Shown one piece after another: positions 35,016 through 63,372 of a stretch of DNA of 64,000 bases (the stretch's first letter is position 1; the number at the start of each line of letters is the position of its first letter). Position numbers and translations under genes: made by a program. The DNA comes from a virus. Its lineage: Duplodnaviria; Caudoviricetes. The notes under the pieces are model-generated. The model made no database searches. It had not been told where the DNA came from and was given only the letters and a program-made list of their open reading frames with translations. The stretch is taken from IMG/VR virus record IMGVR_UViG_3300033075_000275, positions 15,873 through 79,872 of that record; one strand, 5' to 3'.

Positions 35016-35076
35016 CAGATATGTATGATCCCGGTTCGGGCGCTTGGAAACGAACTTTTCGGTAGTGCGCCCATTT

Positions 35077-35134
35077 CCCTTGTGCCACAGGCACTTTCGG
35101 GCCTCGGATTCCCTTGTGCCGCAACGATTTTCGG
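35077..35134. repeat. CCCTTGTG(G/C)CACA..ACTTTCG motif, cluster 1 (2 copies)
   Basis: Copies at 35077 and 35111. Confidence 0.85.
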
Positions 35135-35213
35135 GCACGGTCACCGTGAGTTGATCCTAGATCACAGAGAGTCACTCATACTTTCGGATGATGCCCACTC
35201 ATACTTTCGGTGG

Positions 35214-35243
35214 TTGTGGTCTGTCGGACCTAGGGCATACCCT
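35214..35243 (+). promoter_or_regulatory. Housekeeping-sigma promoter TTGTGG-18-TACCCT
   Basis: Spacer shares TGTCGGACC with promoters at 36814, 37865 and 38624. Confidence 0.6.
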
Positions 35244-36406: not shown

Positions 36407-36408
36407 CT

Positions 36409-36585
36409 GTTAGCTGAATCTTAACCCTCCCTTAGCCTCGGCTTAGGGGAGGGTTTCTTAGCTTAATCTTAACCCCTTCTTAGCTTGGTCTTAGCTAAAT
36501 CAACACGCCCGCAATCTTAGCTAAACCTTAACCACCCCTTAGCTTGCTCTTAACCGCGCGCCCGCCTTAGCTTAATCTTAACCTT
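36409..36585. repeat. 11-bp-phased CTTA(A/G)C array
   Basis: CTTAR at 36420, 36431, 36442; 36457, 36468, 36479, 36490; 36516, 36527, 36538, 36549; 36566, 36577 (extra at 36462, 36571). Confidence 0.9.
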
Positions 36586-36619
36586 CTGTTTACGACATAT
36601 TAAGAAAGCGCCGGAAAGT

Positions 36620-36715
36620 CCTGTGGCACAGACACTTTCGAGGTCGTGAAAACCCTTGTGGCAGAGGCACTTTCGGCGTTGAGGCCCCAAAACCCTTGTG
36701 CCACAACGGAATCCG
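36620..36715. repeat. TGTG-N-CACA motif, cluster 2 (3 copies)
   Basis: Copies at 36620, 36653, 36693. Confidence 0.85.
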
Positions 36716-36776
36716 AGCATAGACGTGTATCTATGCGTTCCCGACGCACTGTAACCTATTTAGCTCGTTCTTAACC

Positions 36777-36842
36777 TGTGACGCAAGTCACACTGGGAAG
36801 GGGCCTCTAGGGCTTGTGTGTGTCGGACCCTAGGTGTACCTT
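36777..36842 (+). promoter_or_regulatory. Perfect CRP-consensus box (TGTGA-cgcaag-TCACA) plus promoter TTGTGT-17-TACCTT
   Basis: Box 36777-36792; -35 at 36814; -10 at 36837. Confidence 0.7.
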
Positions 36843-36866
36843 GTAAGTAGAGAGAAAGGGAAGATC

Positions 36867-37013
36867 ATGGGACACATGAACGTAGTTGAGAACCTTCGGC
36901 CTCTGCCCGAGCGGGTCGGTTGCGCCGTTGTGTGGCCGGATTTCGGAAAGCACGAAACGTACACTCCGGGTTGTTTCGAGTGCTTCATTGCAAATGGTGG
37001 AGGAAACGACTAA
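36867..37013 (+). CDS. Small Cys-containing protein
   Basis: 48 aa, AAAGGGA RBS. Confidence 0.55.
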   Translation: MGHMNVVENLRPLPERVGCAVVWPDFGKHETYTPGCFECFIANGGGND

Positions 37014-37207
37014 TGTCAAAGGTGTTTAGCCCCCGATTCCGTGGCCCAAAGACCACGGTTAGCCACTACGCGGGTAATGGCGCGCATACTCCCACTCAGC
37101 ACAATTGGGTTAGGCTTTCCCCCAATTCCCGGTCTCTGCGCAAGGTTGACTTTTGCGCGGAATGCCGTGCCAAAAGAATCACGACCACTTACCCCGGGGG
37201 GTACTGA
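37013..37207 (+). CDS. Small basic protein
   Basis: 64 aa, GGAGG RBS, TAATG coupling. Confidence 0.55.
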   Translation: MSKVFSPRFRGPKTTVSHYAGNGAHTPTQHNWVRLSPNSRSLRKVDFCAECRAKRITTTYPGGY

Positions 37208-37209
37208 TA

Positions 37210-37362
37210 ATGTGGTGGTTCCCGATTAGCAATGGCACTACCGTAACGGTGTGCAATGAATGCGCTAAGCATGGATCATTTGCGGAGCGGATTGACGGCG
37301 ATCATTTCCTCGCGTGGCACGATAAGTGCTGCGTTTGCGGCGAAACGTTCACCGATATCTGA
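37210..37362 (+). CDS. Small Zn-binding protein
   Basis: CNEC...CCVC, 50 aa. Confidence 0.55.
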   Translation: MWWFPISNGTTVTVCNECAKHGSFAERIDGDHFLAWHDKCCVCGETFTDI

Positions 37363-37373
37363 AATGTGATAAA

Positions 37374-37540
37374 ATGATTCTGTGGATCGTATTTCTTTTG
37401 TTTGTCGCAACAATCCTGTTTTGGAGGCCATAATGGTGCTTTTCGCCGGGCGCAATGAGTGCGATCACCTTTTCGCACACATGACCATTTCCATGCATTT
37501 CGTTTGCGTGCATTGCGGAAGGGTTATCACAACTAAATAG
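37374..37540 (+). CDS. Two coupled micro-ORFs: TM peptide MILWIVFLLFVATILFWRP (37374-37433) and Zn-ribbon peptide (37433-37540)
   Basis: TAATG overlap; GGAGG RBS for second. Confidence 0.45.
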
Positions 37541-37541
37541 G

Positions 37542-37587
37542 CAAAATTAGGCAAATTTCCGAATTTTGGCAAATTTGCCTAATTTTG
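37542..37587. repeat. Perfect 16-bp AT-rich inverted repeat
   Basis: CAAAATTAGGCAAATT (37542-37557) / AATTTGCCTAATTTTG (37572-37587). Confidence 0.85.
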
Positions 37588-37598
37588 TGCAAATTTTT

Positions 37599-37673
37599 CT
37601 TAACTAAAATTTAACTGTCTCTTAACCTGGCCTTAACCGGGCGCCCGCCTTAACCCTTTCTTAACGTTACGAT
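37599..37673. repeat. Second 11-bp-phased CTTAAC array around a degenerate cassette core
   Basis: (C/T)TTAAC at 37599, 37610, 37621, 37632, 37649, 37660; CGGGCGCCCG at 37638; TTACGAT at 37667. Confidence 0.85.
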
Positions 37674-37697
37674 AACCTTTAAGAAGCGCCTGAAAAT

Positions 37698-37792
37698 CCC
37701 TCTGGCACAACGACTTTCGACCCTCCAAAGCCCTTGCAGCACAGGCACTTTCAGCCACGATACTGAAAATCCTTGTGGCACAGGCGTTTTCG
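37698..37792. repeat. TGTG-N-CACA motif, cluster 3 (3 copies)
   Basis: Copies at 37698, 37731, 37771. Confidence 0.8.
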
Positions 37793-37864
37793 ACATATCG
37801 ATCTGAATGAATATAGCTGAGCGTAATAGGCCTAAAGTCCTATCAAAGTAGGGACCTATGGGTC

Positions 37865-37893
37865 TATACCGTGTCGGACCCATGGTGTAGCCT
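37865..37893 (+). promoter_or_regulatory. Promoter TATACC-17-TAGCCT
   Basis: 17-nt spacer with shared GTGTCGGACC. Confidence 0.6.
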
Positions 37894-37915
37894 AGAGGCG
37901 AGAGAGAGGGAAGAA

Positions 37916-38104
37916 ATGACCAAGCCCATTGCCTACGCCGTCCGCCCCTGGACCCACCGTTGCCCTACGGGCACGGGTCACGTCGATGGGCCGATCCGTT
38001 GGGAGCGGAGGATCGGTAAGCAGTGGATCGGTGACCAGACGTGCCGTAACTGCGACGCTACTCAGCGCGTCATCGAGTACGCCGCTCACGCGCGCAACCG
38101 CTGA
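37916..38104 (+). CDS. Small Zn-binding protein
   Basis: H.C...H ... CRNC, GAGG RBS. Confidence 0.55.
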   Translation: MTKPIAYAVRPWTHRCPTGTGHVDGPIRWERRIGKQWIGDQTCRNCDATQRVIEYAAHARNR

Positions 38105-38116
38105 AAGGGAACTGAA

Positions 38117-38368
38117 ATGACCGCATACGCCCCGCCTTGCCACCCAGTCACTAACGGAATGGCGCAGGCCGATATCGACAAACTGCTTTACTCCGAATTG
38201 CCCTCAAAGGTCGAGCGGGTAAAGCGCGAATGGTGCGCCAATTGCGCCATTGTTAGCGAATGCCACGCTCAGGGCTTTTGGGTCAACGAGGATAACAAGC
38301 GCATTGCCCTTCCCGGTATTTTCGGTGGAATGACCGAAAAGGAGCGAAAGGCTCTGGTGCGCGCGTGA
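38117..38368 (+). CDS. whiB: WhiB-family Fe-S transcription factor
   Basis: C8...C40xxC43x5C49 and GIFGGMTEKER motif. Confidence 0.8.
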   Translation: MTAYAPPCHPVTNGMAQADIDKLLYSELPSKVERVKREWCANCAIVSECHAQGFWVNEDNKRIALPGIFGGMTEKERKALVRA

Positions 38369-38523
38369 TTACCGTTCCGCGTGAAATGGTATGGATTATC
38401 GGCATCCTGGCGTTTATCGCCATTTTCCTTTTCGGCCGGGTTTCGTATGAATACGGAATTATCGAGGGAAAGTGTATTGCCACGGGTGGAATACTAAATG
38501 CAAAGGAGGAATGCGTACATTAA
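38365..38523 (+). CDS. Small membrane protein
   Basis: GTGA overlap; single TM WIIGILAFIAIFLFG. Confidence 0.55.
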   Translation: MITVPREMVWIIGILAFIAIFLFGRVSYEYGIIEGKCIATGGILNAKEECVH

Positions 38524-38546
38524 CTGAATCTTAACCTCGTCTTAAC

Positions 38547-38652
38547 CGGGCGCCCGCGCGAGCGCGGGCTGTCAACCCCCTTACGATGTGATGTAGAACA
38601 CGCTCAACTTTTCGGATATGGGCTTGTCTGTGTCGGACCATTCTGCTAGAGT
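38547..38652 (+). repeat. Regulatory cassette copy 1 (no hairpin 1; preceded by CTTAAC x2)
   Basis: CGGGCGCCCG-CGCGAGCGCGGGC-TGTCAA-TTACGA-TGTGA-N6-ACACG; TTGTCT-17-TAGAGT (38624/38647). Confidence 0.9.
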
Positions 38653-38681
38653 TGTACCACGACCTAGGGAAAGGAACCATC

Positions 38682-38879
38682 ATGGATGACTACGCTGACT
38701 TCGCGGACTTCGCAGCGGAGGACTACTTCGATGACTACCCCGGCGACTTCGACGCCGAGCAGGACGACTGGTTCCCCGAGGACGACGACGCGCCCGAGCA
38801 GGACTGGCCCGAGGACGACGCGGAGCGGGACGCCTTCTACGCCGAGGCGTGGGCCGACAGTTATCCCGATTGGGGCTGA
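38682..38879 (+). CDS. Extremely acidic/aromatic 65-aa protein (DNA-mimic candidate)
   Basis: 27 D/E, 1 R, 0 K, 15 aromatic residues; AAGGA RBS; sole gene of its module. Confidence 0.75.
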   Translation: MDDYADFADFAAEDYFDDYPGDFDAEQDDWFPEDDDAPEQDWPEDDAERDAFYAEAWADSYPDWG

Positions 38880-38886
38880 CCCTAGC

Positions 38887-39002
38887 CCGACTACTCTCCG
38901 TAGTCGGCGGGCGCCCGCGCGAGCGCGGGCTGTCAAGCCCTTACGATGTGATCTACCTCACCCCTGAAAACACTAGACCTAGGCAGATTTTTCCGATAGC
39001 CT
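38887..39002 (+). repeat. Regulatory cassette copy 2
   Basis: CCGACTAC-TCTCC-GTAGTCGG hairpin, core 38908, TAGACC-17-TAGCCT. Confidence 0.92.
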
Positions 39003-39035
39003 AGGGGCACAAGGTAAACGACCTAGGGAGTCAAG

Positions 39036-39398
39036 ATGGTTGACGTCACATTCACCGACCACGCCTACCGAAAGTTGGGTGGTGACGTCGATCTGGCCAA
39101 GCGTGTCGTGCTGGCAGCGAAGGCTCCCACAGTGACCTACCCCAACGGTCGCTTCCCTGGCCAGGTCCGTTGCATCCGTGACGGCATGGTCGCCGTCGTC
39201 GCTGGCACTCGTATCGTGACGTTCTATGCGAATATCGTGGAGACGGACATTCGCCCGGACCAGACTGACGATGACGCCAAGGCGTATCAGGCGAAGCGTA
39301 ACGCCGAGCGCGCGAAGCGCGACCGGAAGCGCCAGCAGAAGCGCGACGCTGACCGCGCTTTCACCGCTGCACAGAAGGCCGGAAAGGGGCGCAAGTGA
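39036..39398 (+). CDS. DUF4258/RelE-like fold protein with basic C-terminal tail
   Basis: FTDHAYRK...P.VTY...R....R.G.VAVV....IVTFY pattern. Confidence 0.55.
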   Translation: MVDVTFTDHAYRKLGGDVDLAKRVVLAAKAPTVTYPNGRFPGQVRCIRDGMVAVVAGTRIVTFYANIVETDIRPDQTDDDAKAYQAKRNAERAKRDRKRQQKRDADRAFTAAQKAGKGRK

Positions 39399-39607
39399 CT
39401 ACTCACGACAAGATCGTTGATCTTGCTACTAAGATCGCGCGATACAGGCTGAATAACCCCTCCCAAAGGGCGGGGCAGGCATTCATGAATGTTCTTTCGG
39501 CAGAATATCCCGATCTGCATTCCGCAGTTTTTATCAGCGGTGTCGATCCATTCTACAATGACGGCTTGCTCTCCGCCGCTTGGGGCATTGTTTCGCAGAA
39601 TATCTAA
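39395..39607 (+). CDS. Hypothetical protein
   Basis: QRAGQAFMNVL...DPFY motif; GTGA overlap. Confidence 0.65.
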   Translation: MTTHDKIVDLATKIARYRLNNPSQRAGQAFMNVLSAEYPDLHSAVFISGVDPFYNDGLLSAAWGIVSQNI

Positions 39608-39615
39608 CAGCAATA

Positions 39616-39731
39616 CCGCGATTACTCTCCGTAATCGCGGGCGCCCGGCCCAGGCCGGGCTGTCAAGTCCTTACGATGTGATGTATGTCACGCCTAAAAG
39701 TGTAGACAGACTGGCGCTCATGGTGTAACCT
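39616..39731 (+). repeat. Regulatory cassette copy 3
   Basis: CCGCGATTAC-TCTCC-GTAATCGCGG, GCCCGGCC-CA-GGCCGGGC, TGTGA-N6-TCACG, TAGACA-17-TAACCT. Confidence 0.95.
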
Positions 39732-39750
39732 GACAGTAGGAGGTAAGGAA

Positions 39751-40026
39751 ATGATCTTGGGTATCGACCGAATCGAGCGCCGGGCCGCAGTGAATCTGCC
39801 CGCAACGTGCAACCTTTTCGGTGATTGTGGTCTGATTTTCAGTGTCGAGGTTTTCGTGCATTCCGTAAATGGTGACGTGTGGGAGGTAGAAATCCGCGAT
39901 TTGCAGAGTGGGGTTTCGATTTACTCTCCGCCTGACAAGGAATGGAATTTGCTCGTACCGGAAACAATGGCCGAGGCCGAGCCTTACCTTTACCTCCACC
40001 TGTGGACGATTGGAATGATTGACTAA
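39751..40026 (+). CDS. Hypothetical protein
   Basis: 91 aa, AGGAGG RBS. Confidence 0.7.
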   Translation: MILGIDRIERRAAVNLPATCNLFGDCGLIFSVEVFVHSVNGDVWEVEIRDLQSGVSIYSPPDKEWNLLVPETMAEAEPYLYLHLWTIGMID

Positions 40027-40313
40027 TGGGATACAAATTCACCGCGCATGGTAATTGGATGACCATGCACTTTGACGCGCCGCTGACAAGCGCGGGCGTT
40101 GTCAACGTTGGCGGTTACTGGTGGAATTCCCTTCGGGCCGACCCTTACCGGGCCGCTGCCAAATTCGCCAATGAGCGTACCCCATTCCGTAATGACCCTA
40201 ATTGCCCTACGGCAATGGAATTCTGGGCCGGGGTTACCGATGATGACCTTGCCGAATTCGACAAGCGTAATCAGGAATTGTCTGATAATGTTGCTAAGTG
40301 GGGTTCTGAGTAA
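40026..40313 (+). CDS. Hypothetical protein
   Basis: 95 aa, TAATG coupling. Confidence 0.65.
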   Translation: MGYKFTAHGNWMTMHFDAPLTSAGVVNVGGYWWNSLRADPYRAAAKFANERTPFRNDPNCPTAMEFWAGVTDDDLAEFDKRNQELSDNVAKWGSE

Positions 40314-40320
40314 TTCCAGG

Positions 40321-40437
40321 CCCGTGATTACTCTCCGTAATCGCGGGCGCCCGGCCCAGGCCGGGCTGTCAAGTAGTTACGATGTGACATAGGACACCCC
40401 TGAAAATATTGACACAGAGACTCGCAGGGTGTAGTCT
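40321..40437 (+). repeat. Regulatory cassette copy 4
   Basis: Hairpin 40321-40347, core 40344, TTGACA-17-TAGTCT. Confidence 0.95.
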
Positions 40438-40443
40438 AAAGAC

Positions 40444-40605
40444 ACAACAGAACAGAGGATGACAGCAGGAGCGGGCTAGACCGAGGGATTTAGTCACCCC
40501 CATGAAAGCCCACTACTCCCCAAGGGTGGACGCCGGATTGACGATCACAACTCCCAGGGACATAGGGGAAAGTCGAACCCGCTTCTGCCGTGATCTTCTG
40601 TTCGG
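40444..40605 (+). ncRNA. Candidate structured ncRNA (~160 nt)
   Basis: 40450-40475 pairs with 40578-40603 (24 of 26 positions paired incl. G.U); inner helices; own promoter upstream and a new promoter immediately downstream. Confidence 0.7.
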
Positions 40606-40610
40606 ACAAC

Positions 40611-40639
40611 TTGACAAGTCAATAGCGTGGCGATATACT
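40611..40639 (+). promoter_or_regulatory. Promoter TTGACA-17-TATACT for tRNA cluster
   Basis: Near-consensus hexamers. Confidence 0.85.
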
Positions 40640-40684
40640 AGTCTCCTACCGGGGCGCATCCAAAGGGACCGGCCCGGTAGTGTA

Positions 40685-40764
40685 TGCCATGGGCGCTGGG
40701 ACGCATACGAGTCTGTAAAACTTGTCTCATATGGGTAGCAAGGTTCGATTCCTTGACATGGCAC
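40685..40764 (+). tRNA. tRNA-Tyr(GTA)
   Basis: CGAGT-CTGTAAA-ACTTG anticodon arm, long variable arm, CAAGG-TTCGATT-CCTTG T arm; slightly irregular acceptor stem. Confidence 0.8.
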
Positions 40765-40765
40765 A

Positions 40766-40828
40766 AATCAAGGGTAATCCGGCTCGACGGCGACGGCTGT
40801 TGTGGTGTTCGAATCACCTCCCTTGATT
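40766..40828 (+). pseudogene. tRNA-like element without a canonical anticodon arm
   Basis: 9-bp acceptor-like stem AATCAAGGG/CCCTTGATT, GGTG-TTCGAAT-CACC T arm; middle only 29 nt. Confidence 0.55.
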
Positions 40829-40830
40829 AT

Positions 40831-40905
40831 GGCCCCATCGTCTAATGGCTAGGATTGCGCCCTTTCAAGGCGCAGGAAGGGGATCGAAACCCCTTGGGGC
40901 TACCA
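40831..40905 (+). tRNA. tRNA-Glu(TTC)
   Basis: GCGCC-CTTTCAA-GGCGC; encoded CCA. Confidence 0.92.
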
Positions 40906-40931
40906 GATTAGGAATATGGTATACTAATCAT

Positions 40932-41228
40932 ATGGCATATTCTGATATCGAAAAAAGAAATGAATGGTTTCGCAAACGCTATCAAGATAATCTTGAGTTT
41001 GTTCAAAACTATAAAATGAAAATCGGATGTTCTGACTGTGGATGGAATGAGCATCACGCGGGGTTAGAATTTGATCACGTAAATCCTCATGTGCGCGGAA
41101 CAGTTTCGTCACAATTAGGAAAGTCAAGAAGAGTTATACTAGAAGAAATATCTGCTTGTGAGGTAGTTTGTTCTAGGTGTCATTCACTTAGAACATGGAA
41201 CAGAAGAGCCCAGATGGTTCAAGAGTAA
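40932..41228 (+). CDS. HNH endonuclease inside tRNA array
   Basis: CSDC...LEFDHVNP...LEEISACEVVCSRCH; AGGA RBS; AT-rich. Confidence 0.8.
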   Translation: MAYSDIEKRNEWFRKRYQDNLEFVQNYKMKIGCSDCGWNEHHAGLEFDHVNPHVRGTVSSQLGKSRRVILEEISACEVVCSRCHSLRTWNRRAQMVQE

Positions 41229-41257
41229 GATTTCGGGTTCGATTCCCGTTGGGACTA
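41207..41257 (+). pseudogene. tRNA remnant lacking anticodon arm
   Basis: D-loop-like TGGTTCAAGAGTAAGAT joined directly to CGGG-TTCGATT-CCCG and TTGGGACT; overlaps HNH 3' end. Confidence 0.5.
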
Positions 41258-41366
41258 CGTAGCAAAACTATCGGCAAGGCCAGTCGGTAGAAAGGGAGGG
41301 CGCTGTAGCGAAAGCAGGCCCTAACAAAAACCGTCAATGACGGTAACAAAGCCTCCCAAATATAAT

Positions 41367-41440
41367 TCCGGTGTAGTGTAATGGTAACACAAGTGCTTCC
41401 AAACCATTTGATAGGGGTTCGATTCCTCTCACCGGGGCCA
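41367..41440 (+). tRNA. tRNA-Trp(CCA)
   Basis: TT-CCA-AA loop, GGTTCGATTCC T arm, encoded CCA. Confidence 0.85.
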
Positions 41441-41441
41441 A

Positions 41442-41513
41442 GCCTCCATAGTGAATGGGTTATCATGCATCCCTGTCAAGGATGCGAAACGGGTCCGAGT
41501 CCCGTTGGAGGCG
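41442..41513 (+). tRNA. tRNA-Asp(GTC)
   Basis: CATCC-CTGTCAA-GGATG; GCCTCCA/TGGAGGC acceptor. Confidence 0.88.
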
Positions 41514-41519
41514 CGTTAA

Positions 41520-41590
41520 TCTCCTATAGTTCAATGGCAGAACGGATGGCTGTTAACCATCTAATCTAGGTTCGAATCCTGGTGGGAGAG
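41520..41590 (+). tRNA. tRNA-Asn(GTT)
   Basis: GATGG-CTGTTAA-CCATC; TCTCCTA/TGGGAGA acceptor. Confidence 0.9.
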
Positions 41591-41636
41591 CGGGCGAGAG
41601 ATACCAGGGTTTAAACGTATTCCTCTCCACCCCTAA

Positions 41637-41707
41637 GGGGGTATAGTATAATGGCAAAACCGCTGGCTCTTACCCAGCAGATCGGAGTTCGACTCTCCGT
41701 GCCCCTA
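41637..41707 (+). tRNA. tRNA-Lys(CTT)
   Basis: GCTGG-CTCTTAC-CCAGC; CGGAG-TTCGACT-CTCCG. Confidence 0.85.
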
Positions 41708-41709
41708 CT

Positions 41710-41820
41710 GTTACCGTGAGTGATCGCGGGCGCCCGGCCCAGGCCGGGCTGTCAAGTGTTTACGATGTGATCTAGGACACTTCTAAATATCTTGACAGAT
41801 GACAACTTTTACTATAGCCT
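41710..41820 (+). repeat. Regulatory cassette copy 5 (degenerate hairpin 1)
   Basis: Core 41727, TGTGA-N6-ACACT, TTGACA-17-TAGCCT. Confidence 0.92.
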
Positions 41821-41826
41821 AGTTAC

Positions 41827-42096
41827 ATGAGCCGCACAGACAAGACCGACCCGTGGTGGACTCAGGGTACATGGGTTCCCGTACACGATCACTCTAGGGG
41901 AGCGTGTACTCTCCCTGCCAATCCGCCCTGTCACCACATCACCACGTCATACCGTCACGGTAAGTGCCACTGGACTAAGCGTTGGGATGAGGTCAAGTGG
42001 TCCCGTGACAAGTCGGCTGATCGTGCCGAGCGGGAATGGCTTACTCGCAAGACCCGCTATCGTCGTAACCGTTTGCAGAACGATGATTGGGATTGA
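41827..42096 (+). CDS. Basic His/Cys/Trp-rich hypothetical protein (leaderless)
   Basis: MSRTDKTDPWW...; ATG at predicted +1. Confidence 0.75.
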   Translation: MSRTDKTDPWWTQGTWVPVHDHSRGACTLPANPPCHHITTSYRHGKCHWTKRWDEVKWSRDKSADRAEREWLTRKTRYRRNRLQNDDWD

Positions 42097-42206
42097 TTAC
42101 TCTCAGTAATCACGGGCGCCCGGCCCAGGCCGGGCTGTCAAGTGTTTACGATGTGACTTAGATCACCTGGAAATATCTAGACCGTCACAGTGAATCGTGG
42201 TATAGT
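42094..42206 (+). repeat. Regulatory cassette copy 6
   Basis: TGATTAC-TCTCA-GTAATCA (contains upstream TGA stop), core 42113, TAGACC-17-TATAGT. Confidence 0.92.
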
Positions 42207-42212
42207 CTAACT

Positions 42213-42359
42213 ATGAGTAGCCGACCGAATCCTCGCCGGGCAAGTGAACACCAGCGTATCGTTATTGAGCGCCGTCGATCCAGCGCCGCATCCCCTCATG
42301 TCAACCGCGTCCGATATGATCGCAACCGTTCTAATAGGGAATGGAAGCGTGATGCCTGA
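42213..42359 (+). CDS. Small Arg-rich protein (leaderless)
   Basis: MSSRPNPRRASEHQRIVIERRRSSAASPHVNRVRYDRNRSNREWKRDA; ATG at predicted +1. Confidence 0.65.
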   Translation: MSSRPNPRRASEHQRIVIERRRSSAASPHVNRVRYDRNRSNREWKRDA

Positions 42360-42558
42360 CTCTATAAATCCAATGCATGAACCGCCACACGCGCACGGTA
42401 TTGCTCTCAGCCCCGCCGATGTGAGGCAACTAGAGGCAGCGCTAGACGCGCCTCCTGCCGTGATCGAATCGTTACGCAAACTTCTTGACACCCCCCCCCT
42501 CAATCTGATAGGGTACTCGTATGGCACTCACCCGATCCAAGGACCGCAAGGTTACTAA
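42352..42558 (+). CDS. Short protein with DUF1778 (TacA/AtaR antitoxin) C-terminal-like motif
   Basis: IALSPADVRQLEAALDAPPAVIESLRKLL; weak RBS, overlaps next gene. Confidence 0.35.
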   Translation: MPDSINPMHEPPHAHGIALSPADVRQLEAALDAPPAVIESLRKLLDTPPLNLIGYSYGTHPIQGPQGY

Positions 42559-43228
42559 CGCTGTTTCGCCTAATGGAAAGACGGCAGTAATTGCTAATTC
42601 ATTCGGCCTTCCTGCCGGAAAGGCATTTAGTTGCCCCGGCGCTACCCCATTCTGCGAGCGTATTTGCTACGCTGGCAAATTGGAAAAGGTTTACAAGGGT
42701 GTGCGTAATGTCCTTATGTCCAACTGGAATCAATTGCAGAATGTCACGTTTTCGGAAATGGTCGAATTGCTCGACCGTATGATTACCGATTTCGAGGCGG
42801 AATGCGATAAGCGCGGGGCCGATAAGGCATTCCGTATCCATTGGGATGGGGATTTCTTTAGCAACGATTACACTATCGCATGGCGCGAGGTTATCAACCT
42901 TCACCCCGATACTCATTTCTGGGTTTACACGCGGGTAAAGGATGCGGCAATGATGCTGCACAATGCCAACCTTTCTAACCTTTCGCTTTACTTTAGCGCC
43001 GACCGCGACAATATCTACAATGCCCGGTTGCTTTCTAGCGTCGGTATCAACGTTGCATATGTCGATGACACTTTCGCACAGGGTAAGGCAGAATTTCCGA
43101 AGGCTGCCCGGTGCCCTGAGAATAACAAGGCTATCCCCCTCATTTCCACTAAGGGTAGCGCGTGCATTGTTTGCGGCCTTTGCGTGAATGGTCGGAATGA
43201 CGTGCTGTTTGCGGTGAAAAAGCGATGA
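42521..43228 (+). CDS. GP88-family (radical-SAM-like Fe-S) protein, leaderless
   Basis: FGLPAG..FSCPGATPFCERICYA (CX6CX3C), RIHWDGDF, FWVYTR, NLSLYFSAD; promoter TTGACA-18-TAGGGT. Confidence 0.75.
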   Translation: MALTRSKDRKVTNAVSPNGKTAVIANSFGLPAGKAFSCPGATPFCERICYAGKLEKVYKGVRNVLMSNWNQLQNVTFSEMVELLDRMITDFEAECDKRGADKAFRIHWDGDFFSNDYTIAWREVINLHPDTHFWVYTRVKDAAMMLHNANLSNLSLYFSADRDNIYNARLLSSVGINVAYVDDTFAQGKAEFPKAARCPENNKAIPLISTKGSACIVCGLCVNGRNDVLFAVKKR

Positions 43229-43299
43229 ATAGTTTTGTCACCTTTCTAGTTATCCTGGGAATTGCATTCTTTTGGATGGTCTATTGGAAACCACGCTAA
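43225..43299 (+). CDS. Membrane micropeptide
   Basis: MNSFVTFLVILGIAFFWMVYWKPR, ATGA overlap. Confidence 0.5.
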   Translation: MNSFVTFLVILGIAFFWMVYWKPR

Positions 43300-43305
43300 G
43301 TAACC

Positions 43306-43421
43306 CCGCCGTCACTCTCTGTGACGGCGGGCGCCCGGCCCAGGCCGGGCTGTCAACCCCTTACGATGTGACGTGGATCACCCATAAAACTATAGACTCC
43401 CGACCCCTGATCATGTATGCT
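43306..43421 (+). repeat. Regulatory cassette copy 7
   Basis: CCGCCGTCAC-TCTCT-GTGACGGCGG, core 43328, TAGACT-17-TATGCT. Confidence 0.95.
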
Positions 43422-43452
43422 TGCATCATCACCTAGAGAAAGAGGTAATACA

Positions 43453-43584
43453 ATGGCTCTGTCCGTTCTCATCGCCGCCGAGGTTTGGAATCGTAAGGAC
43501 GGCGCGGTTGTCAAGTCCGTCGTTCGTACCGAGGATGGCCGATTCGTCGGCGTGACCAACCAGACGCGGGAGGTCAAGGCATGA
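43453..43584 (+). CDS. 43-aa protein with EVW..G..V..VVR.E.GRF.GVTN motif
   Basis: GAGGT RBS; paralogue of the repeats in 48449-48658. Confidence 0.65.
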   Translation: MALSVLIAAEVWNRKDGAVVKSVVRTEDGRFVGVTNQTREVKA

Positions 43585-43796
43585 GCGAGAAGTACGCTCT
43601 TGACGTAATGCCGGGGGACATTCTCGATCTTGACGAGCGTGGCCCCGTGCTGGTCGATTACGTTTTCCAACCTAGCGATGACTACTCCGCCGTTGTCATT
43701 AGCGGTTATGACCCCGATGGTGATGAATTCGATGAGGAATTCGACCCCGATGACGTGCTGACCGTTCGTCATAACCTCGCCTATCTTTGGGACTGA
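43581..43796 (+). CDS. Small acidic protein
   Basis: 71 aa, ATGA overlap. Confidence 0.65.
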   Translation: MSEKYALDVMPGDILDLDERGPVLVDYVFQPSDDYSAVVISGYDPDGDEFDEEFDPDDVLTVRHNLAYLWD

Positions 43797-43797
43797 T

Positions 43798-43986
43798 ATG
43801 CCTACCCCGTTCGAAATCCTGTTCCCCGCCGAGGCGGCAATGCGTGATATGCGTATCTGCCCGCTCTGCCAGGTTGCCATCAACCCCGGCGATTTCCGCG
43901 ATGCTATTTCGCTGCGAGAGTCAGAGATTAGCGGCATGTGCCAGACGTGCCAGGACAACTTTTTCACCGATGGAGACGAGTGGTAA
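43798..43986 (+). CDS. Small Zn-finger protein
   Basis: CPLC...FRDAISLRESEISGMCQTCQD. Confidence 0.7.
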   Translation: MPTPFEILFPAEAAMRDMRICPLCQVAINPGDFRDAISLRESEISGMCQTCQDNFFTDGDEW

Positions 43987-44207
43987 TGACCATTCTGTGT
44001 GGTAAGACCCGTCCGCAAGCCGACCCGTATGAGATTTGGGTCGATGGTGACTGGACGTGGCTGGTGCTGAAAAAGTATCAGAACGACGACCGCAAGCCTT
44101 ATGCACGCTGGCTTTGTGCGGTAAAGTCCCCGTTCACCTTCGGTTCGTATGAGGTTGGCGACGTGTATGCTGCCGAGGTCATGGATTCTGCGGAGCGGGT
44201 TCTCTAA
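43986..44207 (+). CDS. Hypothetical protein
   Basis: WTWLVLKKYQ..PYARWLCAVKSPFTFGSYEVGDVY; TAATG coupling. Confidence 0.7.
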   Translation: MTILCGKTRPQADPYEIWVDGDWTWLVLKKYQNDDRKPYARWLCAVKSPFTFGSYEVGDVYAAEVMDSAERVL

Positions 44208-44380
44208 TGGATAGGCAATGGCGTCGGACATTCTTTCTGTCCCTCGCCATTTGCTTTATCCTATTCAGTGTGTTTCGTGCCGTTCTACTGGTCTATATTG
44301 CTGAGCAGGAAAAGGTGACGGGCGAACCTAACTACAATTGTACAATTTGTACAACTGTCCCCCCTGATTACTCTCCGTAA
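44207..44380 (+). CDS. Small membrane protein ending inside cassette hairpin
   Basis: MDRQWRRTFFLSLAICFILFSVFRAVLLVY...CTICTTVPPDYSP*; stop in 3' arm of hairpin 1. Confidence 0.55.
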   Translation: MDRQWRRTFFLSLAICFILFSVFRAVLLVYIAEQEKVTGEPNYNCTICTTVPPDYSP

Positions 44381-44478
44381 TCACGGGCGCCCGGCCTAGG
44401 CCGGGCTGTCAAGTCTTTTACGATATGACATAGAGCACGCCTAAAACTATAGACTGTCACTCTGCCACATGCTATTCT
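44365..44478 (+). repeat. Regulatory cassette copy 8
   Basis: Core 44384, perfect GCCCGGCCTAGGCCGGGC, TAGACT-17-TATTCT. Confidence 0.93.
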
Positions 44479-44506
44479 TGACCTACCAACCGAGAAAGGA
44501 ACCCAA

Positions 44507-44737
44507 ATGTCATCATCCCCCGGAGTGTTCATCGTCAAGGACGGTCGGCCCTTCATCGACGTTCTCACCGTTACCGAAAACATGTGCCAGTTCGCGGTGA
44601 ATATGCTTCGATCCAACAACGCCCCCGTTCCCCGCGAGATGCTTGAGTTTTTCGGTGAGGCTGCGACGATGCGGGCGGAATACATCATTGTAGAGGCCGA
44701 CCTCGCCATGCTCGACCCCGATACTGTGATCGTCTGA
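44507..44737 (+). CDS. Hypothetical protein
   Basis: 76 aa, AAAGGA RBS. Confidence 0.65.
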   Translation: MSSSPGVFIVKDGRPFIDVLTVTENMCQFAVNMLRSNNAPVPREMLEFFGEAATMRAEYIIVEADLAMLDPDTVIV

Positions 44738-44744
44738 GGAGAGC

Positions 44745-45008
44745 ATGATGACTGATATTCCCGAGGGTGTAATCGGATCATACAAGGTCACCCTTCTAGT
44801 AGATCGGAAGCCTTGGATGCTCGACCCGGCTGATTGGGATTGGGAGGCTCTGTGTGGTCCCGATACCAAGGTTGTCGATTGCCACCTCGTAGGGGTTCGA
44901 CTGGATGATGATGAGTTATATGCCCGGCTGGATGAAACCCGCCAGACTTGCGGTCAGCCAGACAATTGTGGCGACTGCGACCACACTTCTGGGAATGGAA
45001 ATCTGTGA
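44745..45008 (+). CDS. Acidic hypothetical protein
   Basis: 87 aa, GAGGAG RBS, C-terminal C....CGDC. Confidence 0.65.
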   Translation: MMTDIPEGVIGSYKVTLLVDRKPWMLDPADWDWEALCGPDTKVVDCHLVGVRLDDDELYARLDETRQTCGQPDNCGDCDHTSGNGNL

Positions 45009-45499
45009 ACAGTAACAAGACTCAGATTCATCGCAAGCGTATATCACGCCCTATGCTATGGCTTGTGAATAACGTGCGAGTGTTTGAGAATGCACGTGTG
45101 CTTCATTTCGGTGAGGGCCGCGCGTTTCTCGACACCCAGGCCCTTATTGATGAGGGAGCATATGTAACTGCGTATGACCCTTATTCCCCCGCGCCTGCTC
45201 AGCGTGACGATGTTGTCATCTACAACTACTACGACTATGTAATTGCAGTCTACGTATTTAACGCTCTGGAACCGGGAGAGCGCATTCAGGCCTACTCCGA
45301 TTTCATTACCGCCAAGATGGGTGGAGTCGGATACATTGCCTTGCGTACTGACAAAATCGCCGGGGTACCCTATGAGGATGGCGTCATTACCCAAAAGTAT
45401 ACCTTTCAGAAGTCTTACACCCCCGAGTCAGCGGTCGAGGAATTCGGCGGCAAGGTAATTCACAAGGGTTCCGGCTTTCTCATTCTGGAGATTTCATAA
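45005..45499 (+). CDS. Small class I SAM-dependent methyltransferase
   Basis: VLHFGEGRA.LD (motif I variant), AYDPY, YDYV..VYVFNAL, TFQKSYT. Confidence 0.65.
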   Translation: MNSNKTQIHRKRISRPMLWLVNNVRVFENARVLHFGEGRAFLDTQALIDEGAYVTAYDPYSPAPAQRDDVVIYNYYDYVIAVYVFNALEPGERIQAYSDFITAKMGGVGYIALRTDKIAGVPYEDGVITQKYTFQKSYTPESAVEEFGGKVIHKGSGFLILEIS

Positions 45500-45515
45500 C
45501 TAACGACGATCTTAT

Positions 45516-45628
45516 CCGGTCCATTCTGGACGGCGGGCGCCCGCGCCAGCGCGGGCTGTCAAGTCTTTTACGATAAGTTAAATATTTCCCCTAAAAACCT
45601 TGACATCCACCCTGGCAGCATGTAGAAT
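45516..45628 (+). repeat. Regulatory cassette copy 9
   Basis: Core 45534, GCCCGCGC-CA-GCGCGGGC, TTACGAT, TTGACA-17-TAGAAT; no CRP-like box. Confidence 0.9.
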
Positions 45629-45634
45629 GACCCC

Positions 45635-45703
45635 ATGGACCTACTATTGATGATCTTGTTAGGTGTGACCCTCGTCATACTCGCAGTCACTTGGAAGCCC
45701 TAG
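45635..45703 (+). CDS. Leaderless membrane micropeptide
   Basis: MDLLLMILLGVTLVILAVTWKP; ATG at predicted +1. Confidence 0.5.
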   Translation: MDLLLMILLGVTLVILAVTWKP

Positions 45704-45729
45704 ACATAGCCGCCCGAATCTGCTAGACT
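45701..45729 (+). promoter_or_regulatory. Promoter TAGACA-17-TAGACT
   Basis: Directly upstream of DUF932 gene. Confidence 0.65.
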
Positions 45730-45760
45730 TGCATCACAAGCCAATCAAGGAAGGAACAAC

Positions 45761-46768
45761 ATGCCTGCTGCTGTCGAAACCTCCGGTCGCCTCGCGGCCT
45801 TTGCTTCCCGTGAGGTGCCCGCGTGGCACGCGCTGGGAACTGTCTTTGAGGGTAACCTCAACACTCAGGAAATGCTCGCTCTCGCTCACCTGAATGGATG
45901 GAACGTTCGGCTCGTCCCGTTTGAGGCTGTCCTCGACTTCGACACCTATGCCAAGCCGCAGTTTCTCGTCGTCCGCGATAACCCGTTCGGTGACGGCCAG
46001 GGCGTTCTCGGCACGGTCGGCTCCCGCTACAATGTCGTGCAGAACGAACAACTGTTCGACTTCGGTGACCTCATCCTCGATGGTGGTGGCCGCTGGGAGA
46101 CTGCCGGGTCCATCAAGGGCGGAACCCAGGTGTTCGGCTCTCTCGCCTTCGATGAAAAGACCATCACGCTCGACCCCGATGGTCGCTCTGACGAGGTAAA
46201 GACGTTCCTCCTGGTCGTGACCGGCCACGACGGCTCATGTGCCGTTACTGCTATCGTGACTCCTGTTCGTGTCGTGTGCGCGAACACGCTGGCCGTTGCC
46301 CTCGGTGGGGCCAAGTCTAAGTTCACGATTCGTCACACTTCCACGGTCGATGGCAAGATCGCTGCCGCTCGTAAGGCGCTCGGTGTGACCTTCGGTTACA
46401 TGGACGCTTTCCAGGCAGAGGCTCAGGCCATGATCGAGAAGGAAATCACTAAGGCCACCTTCGATGACCTTGTGACCTCTCTCTACCCGATGCCCGAGAA
46501 GGACGCCAAGGGATCGGTGAAGAAGTGGACGACCAAGATCGACCAGATCGAGGCAATTTATCTCGGTCAGGCTGACGGTCCCGACACGACCTCCGCCATT
46601 CGCGGAACGGTTTGGGGCGCGTACAATGCCCTTACCGAAAATCTGGACTGGTACGGTAAGATTCGGGCGGGTAACGTCGAATCCCTTACCCTTGGTGCTG
46701 CTGGTCTGGATATCGCTAAGGCTGCTGAGAAGGAGCGGATTCACTCCCGCGTCCTGGCTCTGCTCTGA
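45761..46768 (+). CDS. DUF932-family phage/plasmid protein
   Basis: AWHALG, LGTVGSRY.VVQN, ETAGS..GG..VF, GHDGS..V, TPVRVVCANTL, RHT, GT.WGAYNALTE.LD. Confidence 0.85.
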   Translation: MPAAVETSGRLAAFASREVPAWHALGTVFEGNLNTQEMLALAHLNGWNVRLVPFEAVLDFDTYAKPQFLVVRDNPFGDGQGVLGTVGSRYNVVQNEQLFDFGDLILDGGGRWETAGSIKGGTQVFGSLAFDEKTITLDPDGRSDEVKTFLLVVTGHDGSCAVTAIVTPVRVVCANTLAVALGGAKSKFTIRHTSTVDGKIAAARKALGVTFGYMDAFQAEAQAMIEKEITKATFDDLVTSLYPMPEKDAKGSVKKWTTKIDQIEAIYLGQADGPDTTSAIRGTVWGAYNALTENLDWYGKIRAGNVESLTLGAAGLDIAKAAEKERIHSRVLALL

Positions 46769-46835
46769 CATTCCATCCTGGGCATGATGTAAAACTGCCT
46801 CCACACTTTGTACCATTCAGCATCCACATAATGTA

Positions 46836-46963
46836 CCGCGATTACTGAGAGTAATTGCGGGCGCCCGGCCTAGGCCGGGCTGTCAAGTCCTATTACGATA
46901 GATTACGAAAATCACTGAAATTCGCAGAAAATCCTTGACACGCTGGCCTGTAGGGTGTACCCT
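46836..46963 (+). repeat. Regulatory cassette copy 10 (inverted hairpin-1 loop, duplicated TTACGA)
   Basis: CCGCGATTAC-TGAGA-GTAATTGCGG, core 46858, TTGACA-17-TACCCT. Confidence 0.92.
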
Positions 46964-47004
46964 AGGGGTAGTCAATGAGATGAAACCGACGGACTACAAG
47001 AAGG

Positions 47005-47615: not shown

Positions 47616-48140
47616 ATGATGGCAACTAAGAGAGAGTGGCTAGCGGCTCAGGGCCTAGCAAAGCCCGGCACCCGTGGCCGATTCGGTAAGGCAGCGCATG
47701 AGGCTCTAGAGCAGGCAGAAAAGGACGGCATCGTTTTCGATGACCCGACTCCCAAGCCTGCTAAGGAGGTGGCGACGGAGGGAGCGGAGGCTCCCTCCAA
47801 GCCTAGTCGGCCCACGTCTGAGAACGCAGAAATTAGGGCGTGGGCCAGGGATAACGGATTTACTATCGGTGAGCGCGGCAGAATCTCGGCAGAAATTCTA
47901 GCCGCCTACCATGGTGATCCTATTCCAGATAATGACTATGTACCACCGCCACCCCAGGTCCGGGTCCGCCCGGCGCGGGTGATGTACGGATTCGACAATG
48001 ACGGACATAAGATCGGGTTTGCTACCTGTGGACGATGCGCAGAACACATCTCGTACTGCGAGTGTTCAGAGGGAATCAAGACACCTTTCGGCGTGAACGC
48101 TATTGACGAGTCCCTTACGGAGTGGTACACTTCCGTATGA
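47616..48140 (+). CDS. Lsr2-like protein: two RGR AT-hook domains plus Cys cluster
   Basis: KREWL..QGL..PGTRGRFG; AEIRAWARDNGFTIGERGRISAEILAAY; CGRC....CEC. Confidence 0.8.
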   Translation: MMATKREWLAAQGLAKPGTRGRFGKAAHEALEQAEKDGIVFDDPTPKPAKEVATEGAEAPSKPSRPTSENAEIRAWARDNGFTIGERGRISAEILAAYHGDPIPDNDYVPPPPQVRVRPARVMYGFDNDGHKIGFATCGRCAEHISYCECSEGIKTPFGVNAIDESLTEWYTSV

Positions 48141-53753: not shown

Positions 53754-53981
53754 CTACTGGTCGATGCTGTCAAGGGTTTCTATGGTGGGGCATGGCCATC
53801 TAAATCCACAGTGCTTGCACATGTTTCTAGATGGTATCTCATAGTGAAGGTCGTACAGTTGCTCTACCCGCGCAATTACATCCATCGCTGCAATAGCAAG
53901 GTAGTGTTCTGGCGTGCCCTCTGGATTTACTCGCTGAACCCACCAGGCATCCTCAGATGCATAATGATACTTTCTGTTCAC
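53754..53981 (-). CDS. Hypothetical protein with LHYE..C.HC...WPC.T motif
   Basis: GTG start in GTGA overlap. Confidence 0.55.
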   Translation of the reverse strand: MNRKYHYASEDAWWVQRVNPEGTPEHYLAIAAMDVIARVEQLYDLHYEIPSRNMCKHCGFRWPCPTIETLDSIDQ

Positions 53982-54472
53982 GGCTTCACCATGTTCTCTG
54001 TGAAAGAATACTCTATAGTGTGCGAAGGCCAAAAGTAATTACAACTGCGACAGCAGACATAATTCCTAAATTTCTTGAACTCTTGAAGAAATTGAGGATA
54101 CTGTTCAGGAGATTTTTCATAAAGCCTTCCTCTGTGAGTGATTTTGATACGGTCGTCGTGAATCCAGGGCGGCGGAATATCGTCGTGCCAGTCGTGATAA
54201 TTGGCATCCATGAGGTCTGTTATGGCTCCGCGATATGTATTTCTGTATCCACGTCGTTCTACCTCATCAATGATGGCGTTTGTGTATAAATAGAGATAAC
54301 CCTCCGACCCCGCCCACATTTTTACTGCCGGATGATTACGCCAGCCCTTAGTCAGTCCAGCATTGATGCGTAGGATTTGATATGCCTCTACAGCCTGTTT
54401 GAGTAGTCTTTGTCTGTCTAATGTTTCGGCGGTGGACTTAAAATCAATGCCGTGTGGGAGAAATGTCTGCAC
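53978..54472 (-). CDS. Pyrimidine-dimer DNA glycosylase / endonuclease V family
   Basis: MQTFLP...LDRQRL.KQAVEAYQIL...W.NHPAVKMW.G. Confidence 0.8.
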   Translation of the reverse strand: MQTFLPHGIDFKSTAETLDRQRLLKQAVEAYQILRINAGLTKGWRNHPAVKMWAGSEGYLYLYTNAIIDEVERRGYRNTYRGAITDLMDANYHDWHDDIPPPWIHDDRIKITHRGRLYEKSPEQYPQFLQEFKKFRNYVCCRSCNYFWPSHTIEYSFTENMVKP

Positions 54473-62079: not shown

Positions 62080-62096
62080 TGTTTGCCTTTCTATTG

Positions 62097-62358
62097 TGGA
62101 GTAGGAGGGAATCGAACCCTCGTCCAATGATGTTCAAATTCTAGCAGTTACAACGATGCACTAGCGTTTGTAACAATTGTGTAACAATTTAGTACGGCCT
62201 GACCTTTATTGACGGGGTGGTGGTCAGGAACCCCGGCACTTGCCTATGCTGCGAGTGCTAGTTGAGATTGATTTGCATTTATTGTGTTGTGACTGATTGA
62301 GTCAGTCAGGCTCGTTGCCGCTTCGATCATAGCATCACTGTCGAAACCTGTCTACCCC
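62097..62358 (-). ncRNA. ssrA: tmRNA (compact, 262 nt), tag ANQSQLALAA
   Basis: 5' GGGGTAGACAGGTTTCGAC; G3.U70 acceptor GGGGTAG/CTACTCC; T arm GGGTTCGATTCCC; tag ORF 62244-62276 after ATAAAT. Confidence 0.93.
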
Positions 62359-62363
62359 TTGCG

Positions 62364-62448
62364 TGCCCAAGGCGGGGGTCGAACCCGCACGTCCTTGTGA
62401 GACAATAGTTTTTGAGACTATCGCGTCTACCTGTTCCGCCACTCGGGC
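62364..62448 (-). tRNA. tRNA-Leu(CAA)
   Basis: ATAGT-CTCAAAA-ACTAT, long variable arm. Confidence 0.92.
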
Positions 62449-62458
62449 TTGTCCTCCA

Positions 62459-62487
62459 ATTATAGGGCATCAATAGCAGCCTGTCAA
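62459..62487 (-). promoter_or_regulatory. Perfect promoter TTGACA-17-TATAAT for tRNA-Leu/tmRNA
   Basis: Exact consensus. Confidence 0.92.
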
Positions 62488-62489
62488 GG

Positions 62490-63220: not shown

Positions 63221-63228
63221 CCCTTACG

Positions 63229-63295
63229 TGCCACTACCGGGAGTCGAACCCGAAACTGCAAGCCTCGGATGCTCGCGCTGTTCCTTACTAGCGGC
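63229..63295 (-). tRNA. tRNA-Arg(CCG), reduced D arm
   Basis: CGAGC-ATCCGAG-GCTTG, CGGG-TTCGACT-CCCG; only 67 nt. Confidence 0.7.
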
Positions 63296-63299
63296 TGAG

Positions 63300-63372
63300 T
63301 GCGGGCGGTGGGATTCGAACCCACACTGATCAGATTTTAAGTCTGTTGCCTCTGCCATTGGGCTACGTCCGC
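63300..63372 (-). tRNA. tRNA-Leu(TAA), short variable loop
   Basis: CAGA-CTTAAAA-TCTG, GTGGG-TTCGAAT-CCCAC. Confidence 0.9.

Follow-up and report, generated by a model that had tools for sequence, protein, structure and literature searches.

CRP/GlxR-type boxes upstream of predicted early promoters in an uncultured phage: candidate activator sites for a host regulator

In a 64,000-nucleotide stretch of a Caudoviricetes phage (the window; bases 15873-79872 of the 79,872-bp IMG/VR virus record IMGVR_UViG_3300033075_000275, denoted as G000, with a CheckV completeness of 63%), a 16-bp dyad of the TGTGA-N6-TCACA type recurs upstream of promoter-like sequences in the early region. Which protein would read such a box on phage DNA, and to what effect? 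We consider, with a probability of about 0.5, that the boxes are class-I-like upstream activator sites, most likely for the Crp/GlxR protein of the host. In the mechanism proposed here, a dimeric CRP-family regulator, the likeliest being the Crp/GlxR orthologue of an actinobacterial host, would bind the dyads as upstream activator sites that share one helical face, at about -53.5 or further upstream by whole turns (-64.5, -75.5 and -85.5). The promoters downstream would be read by the host RNA polymerase with its primary sigma factor, and the bound dimer would aid recruitment of the polymerase in the manner of class I CRP, the outcome being a boost of the first-expressed cassettes of small genes, transfer RNAs (tRNAs) and a DUF932 gene. 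The placement of boxes at whole turns upstream of many early promoters suggests that a host global regulator helps to switch these genes on.

The box and its sequence

Matches to TGTGA-N6-DCAC start at 36777, 38587, 38947, 39677, 40383, 41766, 42152 and 43367, all on the + strand, and a TATGA variant lies at 44424. These nine coordinates had been listed in an original prediction on this DNA, and all of them, including the perfect palindrome at 36777 and the TATGA variant, proved correct. Eight of the nine boxes are parts of an array of ten cassettes of about 110 nt, the exception being the 36777 palindrome. Within a cassette, two GC-rich hairpins are followed in order by GGGCTGTCAA(G), 3-5 nt, TTACGAT, the box (in copies 1-8 only), an A-rich tract and a sigma-A-type promoter of the form T(T/A)GACn-N17-TAnnnT; GGGCTGTCAA starts at 38566, 38927, 39657, 40363, 41746, 42132, 43347, 44403, 45553 and 46877. 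Promoters were predicted by pattern, with TAnnnT as the -10 placed 17 nt after T(T/A)GACn or 7 nt after TGTCGGACC, and +1 was set 12 nt after the start of the -10, with a start-site error of perhaps 1-2 bp. Since a generic scan of the region for E. coli-consensus sigma70 promoters and terminators was not enriched over shuffles, the promoter calls rest on the conserved T(T/A)GACn-N17-TAnnnT and TGTCRGMCC-N7-TAnnnT patterns. On the inferred +1, the box centres lie at -53.5 (n=6, the 44424 variant included) and -64.5 (n=2; 36777 and 38587), as had been predicted, and one box is centred at -54.5 (38947). The array and the boxes, together with a newly found degenerate one, are as follows.

38540-46975, + strand: array of ten cassettes of about 110 nt, all between about 38.5 and 47.0 kb
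36777-36792, + strand: perfect palindromic box TGTGACGCAAGTCACA, outside any cassette; centre -64.5; TGTCGGACC at 36821-36829; -10 TACCTT at 36837-36842
38587-38602, + strand: box TGTGATGTAGAACACG of cassette copy 1; centre -64.5; -10 TAGAGT at 38647-38652
38947-38962, + strand: box TGTGATCTACCTCACC of copy 2; centre -54.5; -35 TAGACC; -10 TAGCCT at 38997-39002
39677-39692, + strand: box TGTGATGTATGTCACG of copy 3; centre -53.5; -35 TAGACA; -10 TAACCT at 39726-39731
40383-40398, + strand: box TGTGACATAGGACACC of copy 4; centre -53.5; -35 TTGACA; -10 TAGTCT at 40432-40437
41766-41781, + strand: box TGTGATCTAGGACACT of copy 5; centre -53.5; -35 TTGACA; -10 TAGCCT at 41815-41820
42152-42167, + strand: box TGTGACTTAGATCACC of copy 6; centre -53.5; -35 TAGACC; -10 TATAGT at 42201-42206
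43367-43382, + strand: box TGTGACGTGGATCACC of copy 7; centre -53.5; -35 TAGACT; -10 TATGCT at 43416-43421
44424-44439, + strand: weakened TATGA box TATGACATAGAGCACG of copy 8, the first G of GTG lost; centre -53.5; -10 TATTCT at 44473-44478
45553-45628, + strand: cassette copy 9; hairpin, TGTCAAG and TTACGAT kept, no box; promoter TTGACA-N17-TAGAAT (consensus)
45664-45679, + strand: newly found degenerate box TGTGACCCTCGTCATA with one mismatch (CAC to CAT); centre -64.5
46877-46963, + strand: cassette copy 10, no box; promoter TTGACA-N17-TACCCT

The degenerate box precedes a promoter TAGACA-N17-TAGACT (-10 at 45724-45729) directly 5' of the DUF932 gene (45761-46768), whose homologues in relatives have a full box upstream. 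Downstream of the copy 4 box lie a stretch free of open reading frames (ORFs) and a tRNA array. Sixteen promoter-like sites were counted at 33.5-49.5 kb, eight with a full box, one with the TATGA variant, one with the degenerate box and six with none, so that the earlier wording of boxes at nearly all early promoters was too strong, 9-10 of the 16 being boxed. TGTGA-N6-DCAC matched 12 times in the whole window against 1.55 expected from shuffles, a count that is not independent evidence of function because the boxes are paralogous (8/9 in one repeat family). The matches at 19179, 26967 and 30731 were linked to no predicted promoter and were treated as chance; 19179, the one examined, is inside an ORF. 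A second perfect palindrome, TGTGATATTGGTCACA, is present at G000 position 9524, 6.3 kb upstream of the window start, inside an ORF of 687 amino acids and away from any promoter (in 80 kb, chance would give about 0.08).

When 35 sites were aligned at the canonical positions, the columns left unfixed by the search were T1 in 31/35, A5 in 29/35, T8 in 25/35, A9 in 27/35 and A16 in 25/35, and position 12, the weakest of the GlxR-preferred columns, was T in 18 and A in 12. The derived consensus TGTGAynTAsr(T/A)CACA agrees at every specified position with TGTGANNTANNTCACA, the sequence recognised by GlxR of C. glutamicum (PMC4254451). The E. coli catabolite activator CAP and M. tuberculosis CRP bind TGTGA-N6-TCACA with protein contacts at G2 and G4 (PMC10187061, PMC4117774), and these contacted positions are the invariant ones in the phage boxes. 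The nine window sites and the palindromes of three relatives (G002, G004 and G007) are 16-bp dyads of the TGTGA-N6-TCACA type with GTG and CAC cores 8 bp apart. The CRP-family (Crp/GlxR) consensus named in the original prediction therefore stands, with T1, A5, the central TA and A16 of the 35 sites all matching. A literature search with the motif strings returned only unrelated primer matches.

Another host regulator with a similar dyad might read the box, either the redox sensor Rex or a second CRP/FNR paralogue such as Cmr. Rex-type operators include TGTGA...TCACA, and the operator known from Streptomyces is TTGTGAA-N4-TTCACAA; however, the A6 and T11 that Rex requires occur in only 3/35 and 2/35 of the sites, and Rex is a repressor that acts over promoters and not 50-85 bp upstream of them. 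In the case of Cmr, the motifs of Cmr and CRP overlap in M. tuberculosis (PMC5758884), although a CRP paralogue is inseparable from Crp by its site. Considering these points, we regard either regulator as highly improbable. Sites of BldD, WhiA (GACAC) and Rex were also tried as identities for the box and were rejected, as their spacing or bases do not fit.

Recurrence in relatives, helical phasing and cassettes

Independent evidence for the box comes from relatives rather than from enrichment inside the window. An IMG/VR scan for the flank (TGTCAAG-N3-5-TTACGA) plus box returned about 20 contigs with the element, and seven related contigs (G001-G007) were taken in full, giving eight with G000, two of them 92-94% complete. 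Their portal proteins are 48-53% identical to that of G000 in the five relatives tested, and 45-52% by tblastn across all seven. The same box is present in all seven, with many perfect TGTGA-N6-TCACA sites that have no cassette flanks. In G002, about ten boxes belong to a cassette array comparable to that of the window, the full flank-plus-box element occurs once or twice in each of G003-G006, and G007 has one besides its palindromes; the elements of G003-G007 are mostly located 5' of the DUF932-gene homologue or of a small-gene block with whiB. In G007, at least 10 boxes fall within 8 kb, five of them perfect palindromes lacking the TTACGA flank, and palindromes of this kind were also found in G002, in G004 and at 36777 in G000. 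Genome-wide, we counted 15 boxes in G000, 10 in G002 and 15 in G007 against about 3 in simulations. Two cluster-BE Streptomyces phages that we checked, Jay2Jay and Tomas, which are the nearest relatives of G000 in culture, had boxes at background level only, with no genome-wide enrichment, and the cassette was missing from both. In several G002 cassettes (49470, 50874 and 55002), a direct repeat GGTTGCAGAA(T/C)GGTTGCA is located between the CRP-type box and the promoter, and this repeat may be the site of a further regulator.

To describe the distance between box and promoter, each box was paired automatically with the best promoter-like site at 20-80 nt on its 3' side. The 48 resulting instances fall into 40 clusters with spacer-plus-promoter sequences less than 60% identical, the clusters being not fully independent and the start sites inferred. 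The gap from the box end to the -10 was 33-34 nt in 10 clusters, 42-44 nt in 8, 54-57 nt in 11 and 62-65 nt in 6, and these classes correspond to box centres at about -53.5, -64.5, -75.5 and -85.5. The vector strength peaked at 0.73 for a period of 10.5 bp, a value that none of 20,000 uniform random sets reached, and several spacers are equal in length (39 nt) though less than 60% identical. As a control, we started from the promoters and examined the upstream 160 nt of 345 promoter-like sites, where GTG-N8-CAC occurred 41 times and GAG-N8-CTC 6 times, with the same four peaks; the same control in the two BE phages yielded only three scattered GTG-N8-CAC matches. The box-promoter distance is held to one helical face in G000 and its relatives. 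In G004, the perfect palindrome TGTGATCTGTCTCACA (G004:C1:93555-93570) is located between two divergent predicted promoters, with its centre at -53.5 relative to the first and at -54.5 relative to the second.

All ten cassettes have promoter hexamers with 17-nt spacing, and their hairpins fold at -26 to -34 kcal/mol with no U-tract. The loss of the box in copies 9 and 10, already noted in the original prediction, was confirmed, and both copies retain TGTCAAG and TTACGAT (45553 and 46877); conversely, this flank is missing at many palindromic boxes. The -35 of the two boxless copies is the consensus TTGACA, whereas most boxed copies have TAGACn, as would be expected if the boxed promoters need help, although the sample is small. 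Considering the phasing, the weaker -35 of the boxed copies and the site common to divergent promoters, we propose class-I-like activation. The second hairpin of the cassette exists in two compensated versions, GCCCGCGCGAGCGCGGGC and GCCCGGCCCAGGCCGGGC (38549-38566 and 38910-38927 versus 39640-39657 and later copies), and its stem is therefore kept by paired changes. Three other readings of the cassette were rejected, namely the box as part of a second promoter (TTACGA-N17/18-TAAAAn or TTGTCA-N17-TAAGAC), as that -10 has no final T and boxes exist without flanks; a divergent promoter with TGTCAA as its reversed -35, as the hairpin contains no -10; and a T7-like phage polymerase promoter, to which there was no convincing likeness.

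It could also be that the box has no dedicated binder and is maintained through common descent and gene conversion as terminator-promoter cassettes resembling the PeSL elements of T4-type phages recombine, or that it acts as a flexible or bent DNA element. TG/CA steps are indeed flexible, and eight of the nine window boxes are paralogous copies in the 110-nt repeat, with invariant neighbours. Such cassettes recombine in T4-type phages (PMC2839356). However, within the cassettes the half-sites are kept (TGTGA 7/8, CAC 8/8) while seven inner positions vary, which is the pattern expected of a dyad protein site. Furthermore, boxes also occur outside cassettes, in phages 45-53% identical in the portal and amid spacers less than 60% identical, and descent accounts for neither the dyad symmetry nor the phasing. 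We consider an origin by descent or DNA shape quite improbable, and a bound activator remains our preferred reading.

The 36777 palindrome lies 5' of a predicted promoter of a second type, in which TGTCGGACC is located 7 nt before the -10. The TGTC(A/G)G(A/C)CC element stops exactly 7 nt short of the -10, at about -28 to -20, often with no recognisable -35, and in the window it is present at 35222-35230, 36821-36829, 37872-37880 and 38631-38639. There are 6-16 such sites per related contig (many in G001-G007) compared with 2-4 in the BE phages, and the element may represent a separate promoter class or the site of another factor. Eight direct repeats of 22-29 nt (CCTTGTGGCACAGGCACTTTCG) form clusters of 2, 3 and 3 at 35071-35136, 36612-36719 and 37691-37795, each upstream of one TGTCGGACC-type promoter, and contain a short TGTG-G-CACA dyad unlike the CRP-type box. 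Short repeats of the CTTA(A/G)C(C/T) type (TCTTAGCTTAATCTTAACC...) occur in runs just 5' of the same promoters, at 36408-36602, 37598-37668 and 38518-38555.

Candidate binding proteins and the host

Between G000 and Streptomyces cluster-BE phages (family Stanwilliamsviridae; for example Jay2Jay and Tomas), portal protein identity is 59-60%, and a megablast of G000 DNA against phage records gave no DNA-level match. When 30 ORFs of the window between 34 and 63 kb, mostly early, were compared with Pfam, only WhiB, an Lsr2 domain, DUF932, GP88, KTSC and a pyrimidine-dimer glycosylase were found. The three genes that concern the binder or the host are given below.

38117-38368, early region: gene for a WhiB-family protein
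47619-48140, early region: gene for a protein with an Lsr2 DNA-binding domain
53978-54472, - strand: pyrimidine-dimer DNA glycosylase (DenV-like, PF03013)

To our knowledge, the WhiB and Lsr2 families are confined to Actinobacteria and their phages, and the host of G000 is therefore likely actinobacterial. The two proteins are themselves candidates for a takeover of host transcription or of the nucleoid. DNA near-identical to G000 is present in wastewater and activated-sludge sequencing runs from several studies; two of these runs contain 99% of the words sampled, and no RNA run is among the listed holders of the stretch. The earlier link to Streptomyces and spore germination was not upheld, given this wastewater and activated-sludge DNA and the absence of boxes from Jay2Jay and Tomas. 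Six tRNA genes occupy cassette slots 3' of boxed promoters (window 40682-41708 and 62096-63372, the transfer-messenger RNA (tmRNA) included), and the phage tmRNA gene encodes the tag ANQSQLALAA, for which a back-translated pattern had no match in 185,579 species genomes. A genome search with the cassette pattern returned chance matches, mis-binned phage contigs and one conserved Cohnella element, and no host. In nine Cohnella genomes and one Bacillota metagenome-assembled genome, a common upstream element TGTCAA(T/A)ATTGTTACGnTGTGA-N6-TCACA precedes an ORF beginning MKKW; its fit to the phage flank and box was a requirement of the search, and it is probably a site for a CRP-family protein in that genus.

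No Crp-family domain (PF13545, PF00027) scored above threshold in the eight contigs. With no gene of this family found on the phage side, the simplest candidate is a protein of the host. One DNA-binding signature is common to the Crp proteins of Mycobacterium, Corynebacterium, Gordonia and Streptomyces (PMC10187061), and host Crp/GlxR would most likely be the binder, being the most economical candidate. Alternatively, the box may be the operator of a phage-encoded or virion-delivered dimeric protein of CRP-like specificity, which would activate delayed-early cassettes or shut early transcription off. Such a factor could be produced from an immediate-early set formed by the six boxless promoters of the region. 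Most of the small early ORFs fall into no family that can be recognised, G000 is incomplete at 63%, and the conserved asymmetric TTACGA flank suggests recognition beyond the 16-bp CRP core. On the other hand, besides the lack of a Crp-family domain in all eight contigs, no helix-turn-helix family was found by Pfam in the 30 scanned ORFs, WhiB and the Lsr2 domain being the only DNA-related matches, and tblastn revealed no candidate DNA-binding ORF that accompanies the boxes from relative to relative. Among the G000 ORFs, the glycosylase alone was present in each of the five box-bearing relatives that were compared in full (G002-G005 and G007) and missing from Jay2Jay and Tomas; it is also missing from G001. 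Moreover, the match to the host-type consensus extends to the central TA, the perfect palindromes of G007 have no flank, and phased sites 50-85 bp upstream would be an odd layout for simple repression. A phage protein thus seems unlikely to us, and host Crp/GlxR is retained as the candidate binder.

Several observations weigh against host Crp/GlxR acting at the boxes in a class-I-like manner. The promoter-proximal half-site is the weaker one, with nCAC followed by C, G or T and never by A in the eight cassette boxes, and the TTACGA and TGTCAAG flank is conserved as strongly as the box. Some sites are out of phase (-62.5, -69.5 and, three times, -83.5). The class I centres of E. coli are -61.5, -71.5, -82.5 and -92.5, from which the phage positions are off by about 3 bp, and -53.5, the commonest position here, is not activating in E. 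coli. A phage-encoded binder, for instance a small and fast-evolving protein, may have been overlooked, as Pfam often misses small DNA-binding proteins of phages and the completeness of G000 is only 63%. Finally, the cultured relatives with a known host have no boxes, and there is thus no tractable host at hand.

The effect of cyclic AMP (cAMP) on DNA binding is about 100-fold for GlxR and only moderate for mycobacterial Crp (PMC10187061). Since it is moderate in mycobacteria, even a bound Crp would not imply that nutritional state gates the promoters. As a rather unlikely reading, we put forward that a whole clade of uncultured lytic actinophages wires its first wave of transcription to host cAMP-Crp, such that early expression would be strong only when Crp is active and the metabolic or dormancy state of the host would be read at the start of infection. 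The open literature searched yielded no account of CRP sites at the early promoters of phages. Such promoters are usually seen as strong and able to serve the host polymerase unaided. If they depend on a host global regulator as activator, the launch of infection would depend on host physiology, and the host-state checkpoint would lie in the early promoters rather than in a repressor switch. This would provide a concrete, testable link between cAMP signalling and phage susceptibility in actinobacteria, including sludge-foaming and pathogenic mycolata, and the phased modular cassettes would be a ready, graded set of Crp-responsive promoters for actinobacterial genetics.

Comparison with known systems

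The boxes resemble the class I CRP (CAP, lac type) promoters of E. coli in that a 16-bp TGTGA-N6-TCACA is located upstream of the -35 on one helical face at whole turns, as found in the 40 clusters (vector strength 0.73), and in that the box is carried by promoters with a weaker -35. In E. coli, the class I mechanism is recruitment of RNA polymerase via the alpha C-terminal domain (PMC10187061). In contrast with that system, the sites are in a phage early region, their start sites are predicted, and -53.5 is just upstream of the -35. Among the Crp sites of M. tuberculosis in a chromatin immunoprecipitation sequencing study, positions from mapped starts include -55.5, -56.5, -57.5, -62.5, -64.5 and -75.5 (read off a table and given as context only), and upstream binding was associated with activation. 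The site of S. coelicolor Crp is only a loose one, GTG(N)6GNCAC, and its two halves are unequally kept (PMC3520106); the phage GTG-N8-CAC fits this site, and one half is the better kept in both. Unlike the operators of C. glutamicum GlxR, M. tuberculosis Rv3676 and S. coelicolor Crp, the sites here are on phage DNA and are predicted ones.

In terms of architecture, eight of the ten phage units have a CRP-type box and the TGTCAAG...TTACGA flank, whereas the abstract of the PeSL report mentions no activator site (PMC2839356), and the hairpins here, unlike those of PeSL, have no U-tract. The ten copies nevertheless resemble the PeSL of T4-type phages (Arbiol et al. 2010, PMC2839356), as both are repeated units of a stem-loop and a strong, early sigma70-like promoter that punctuate a plastic region of small, non-essential genes. 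PeSL is the closest described architecture for the cassettes.

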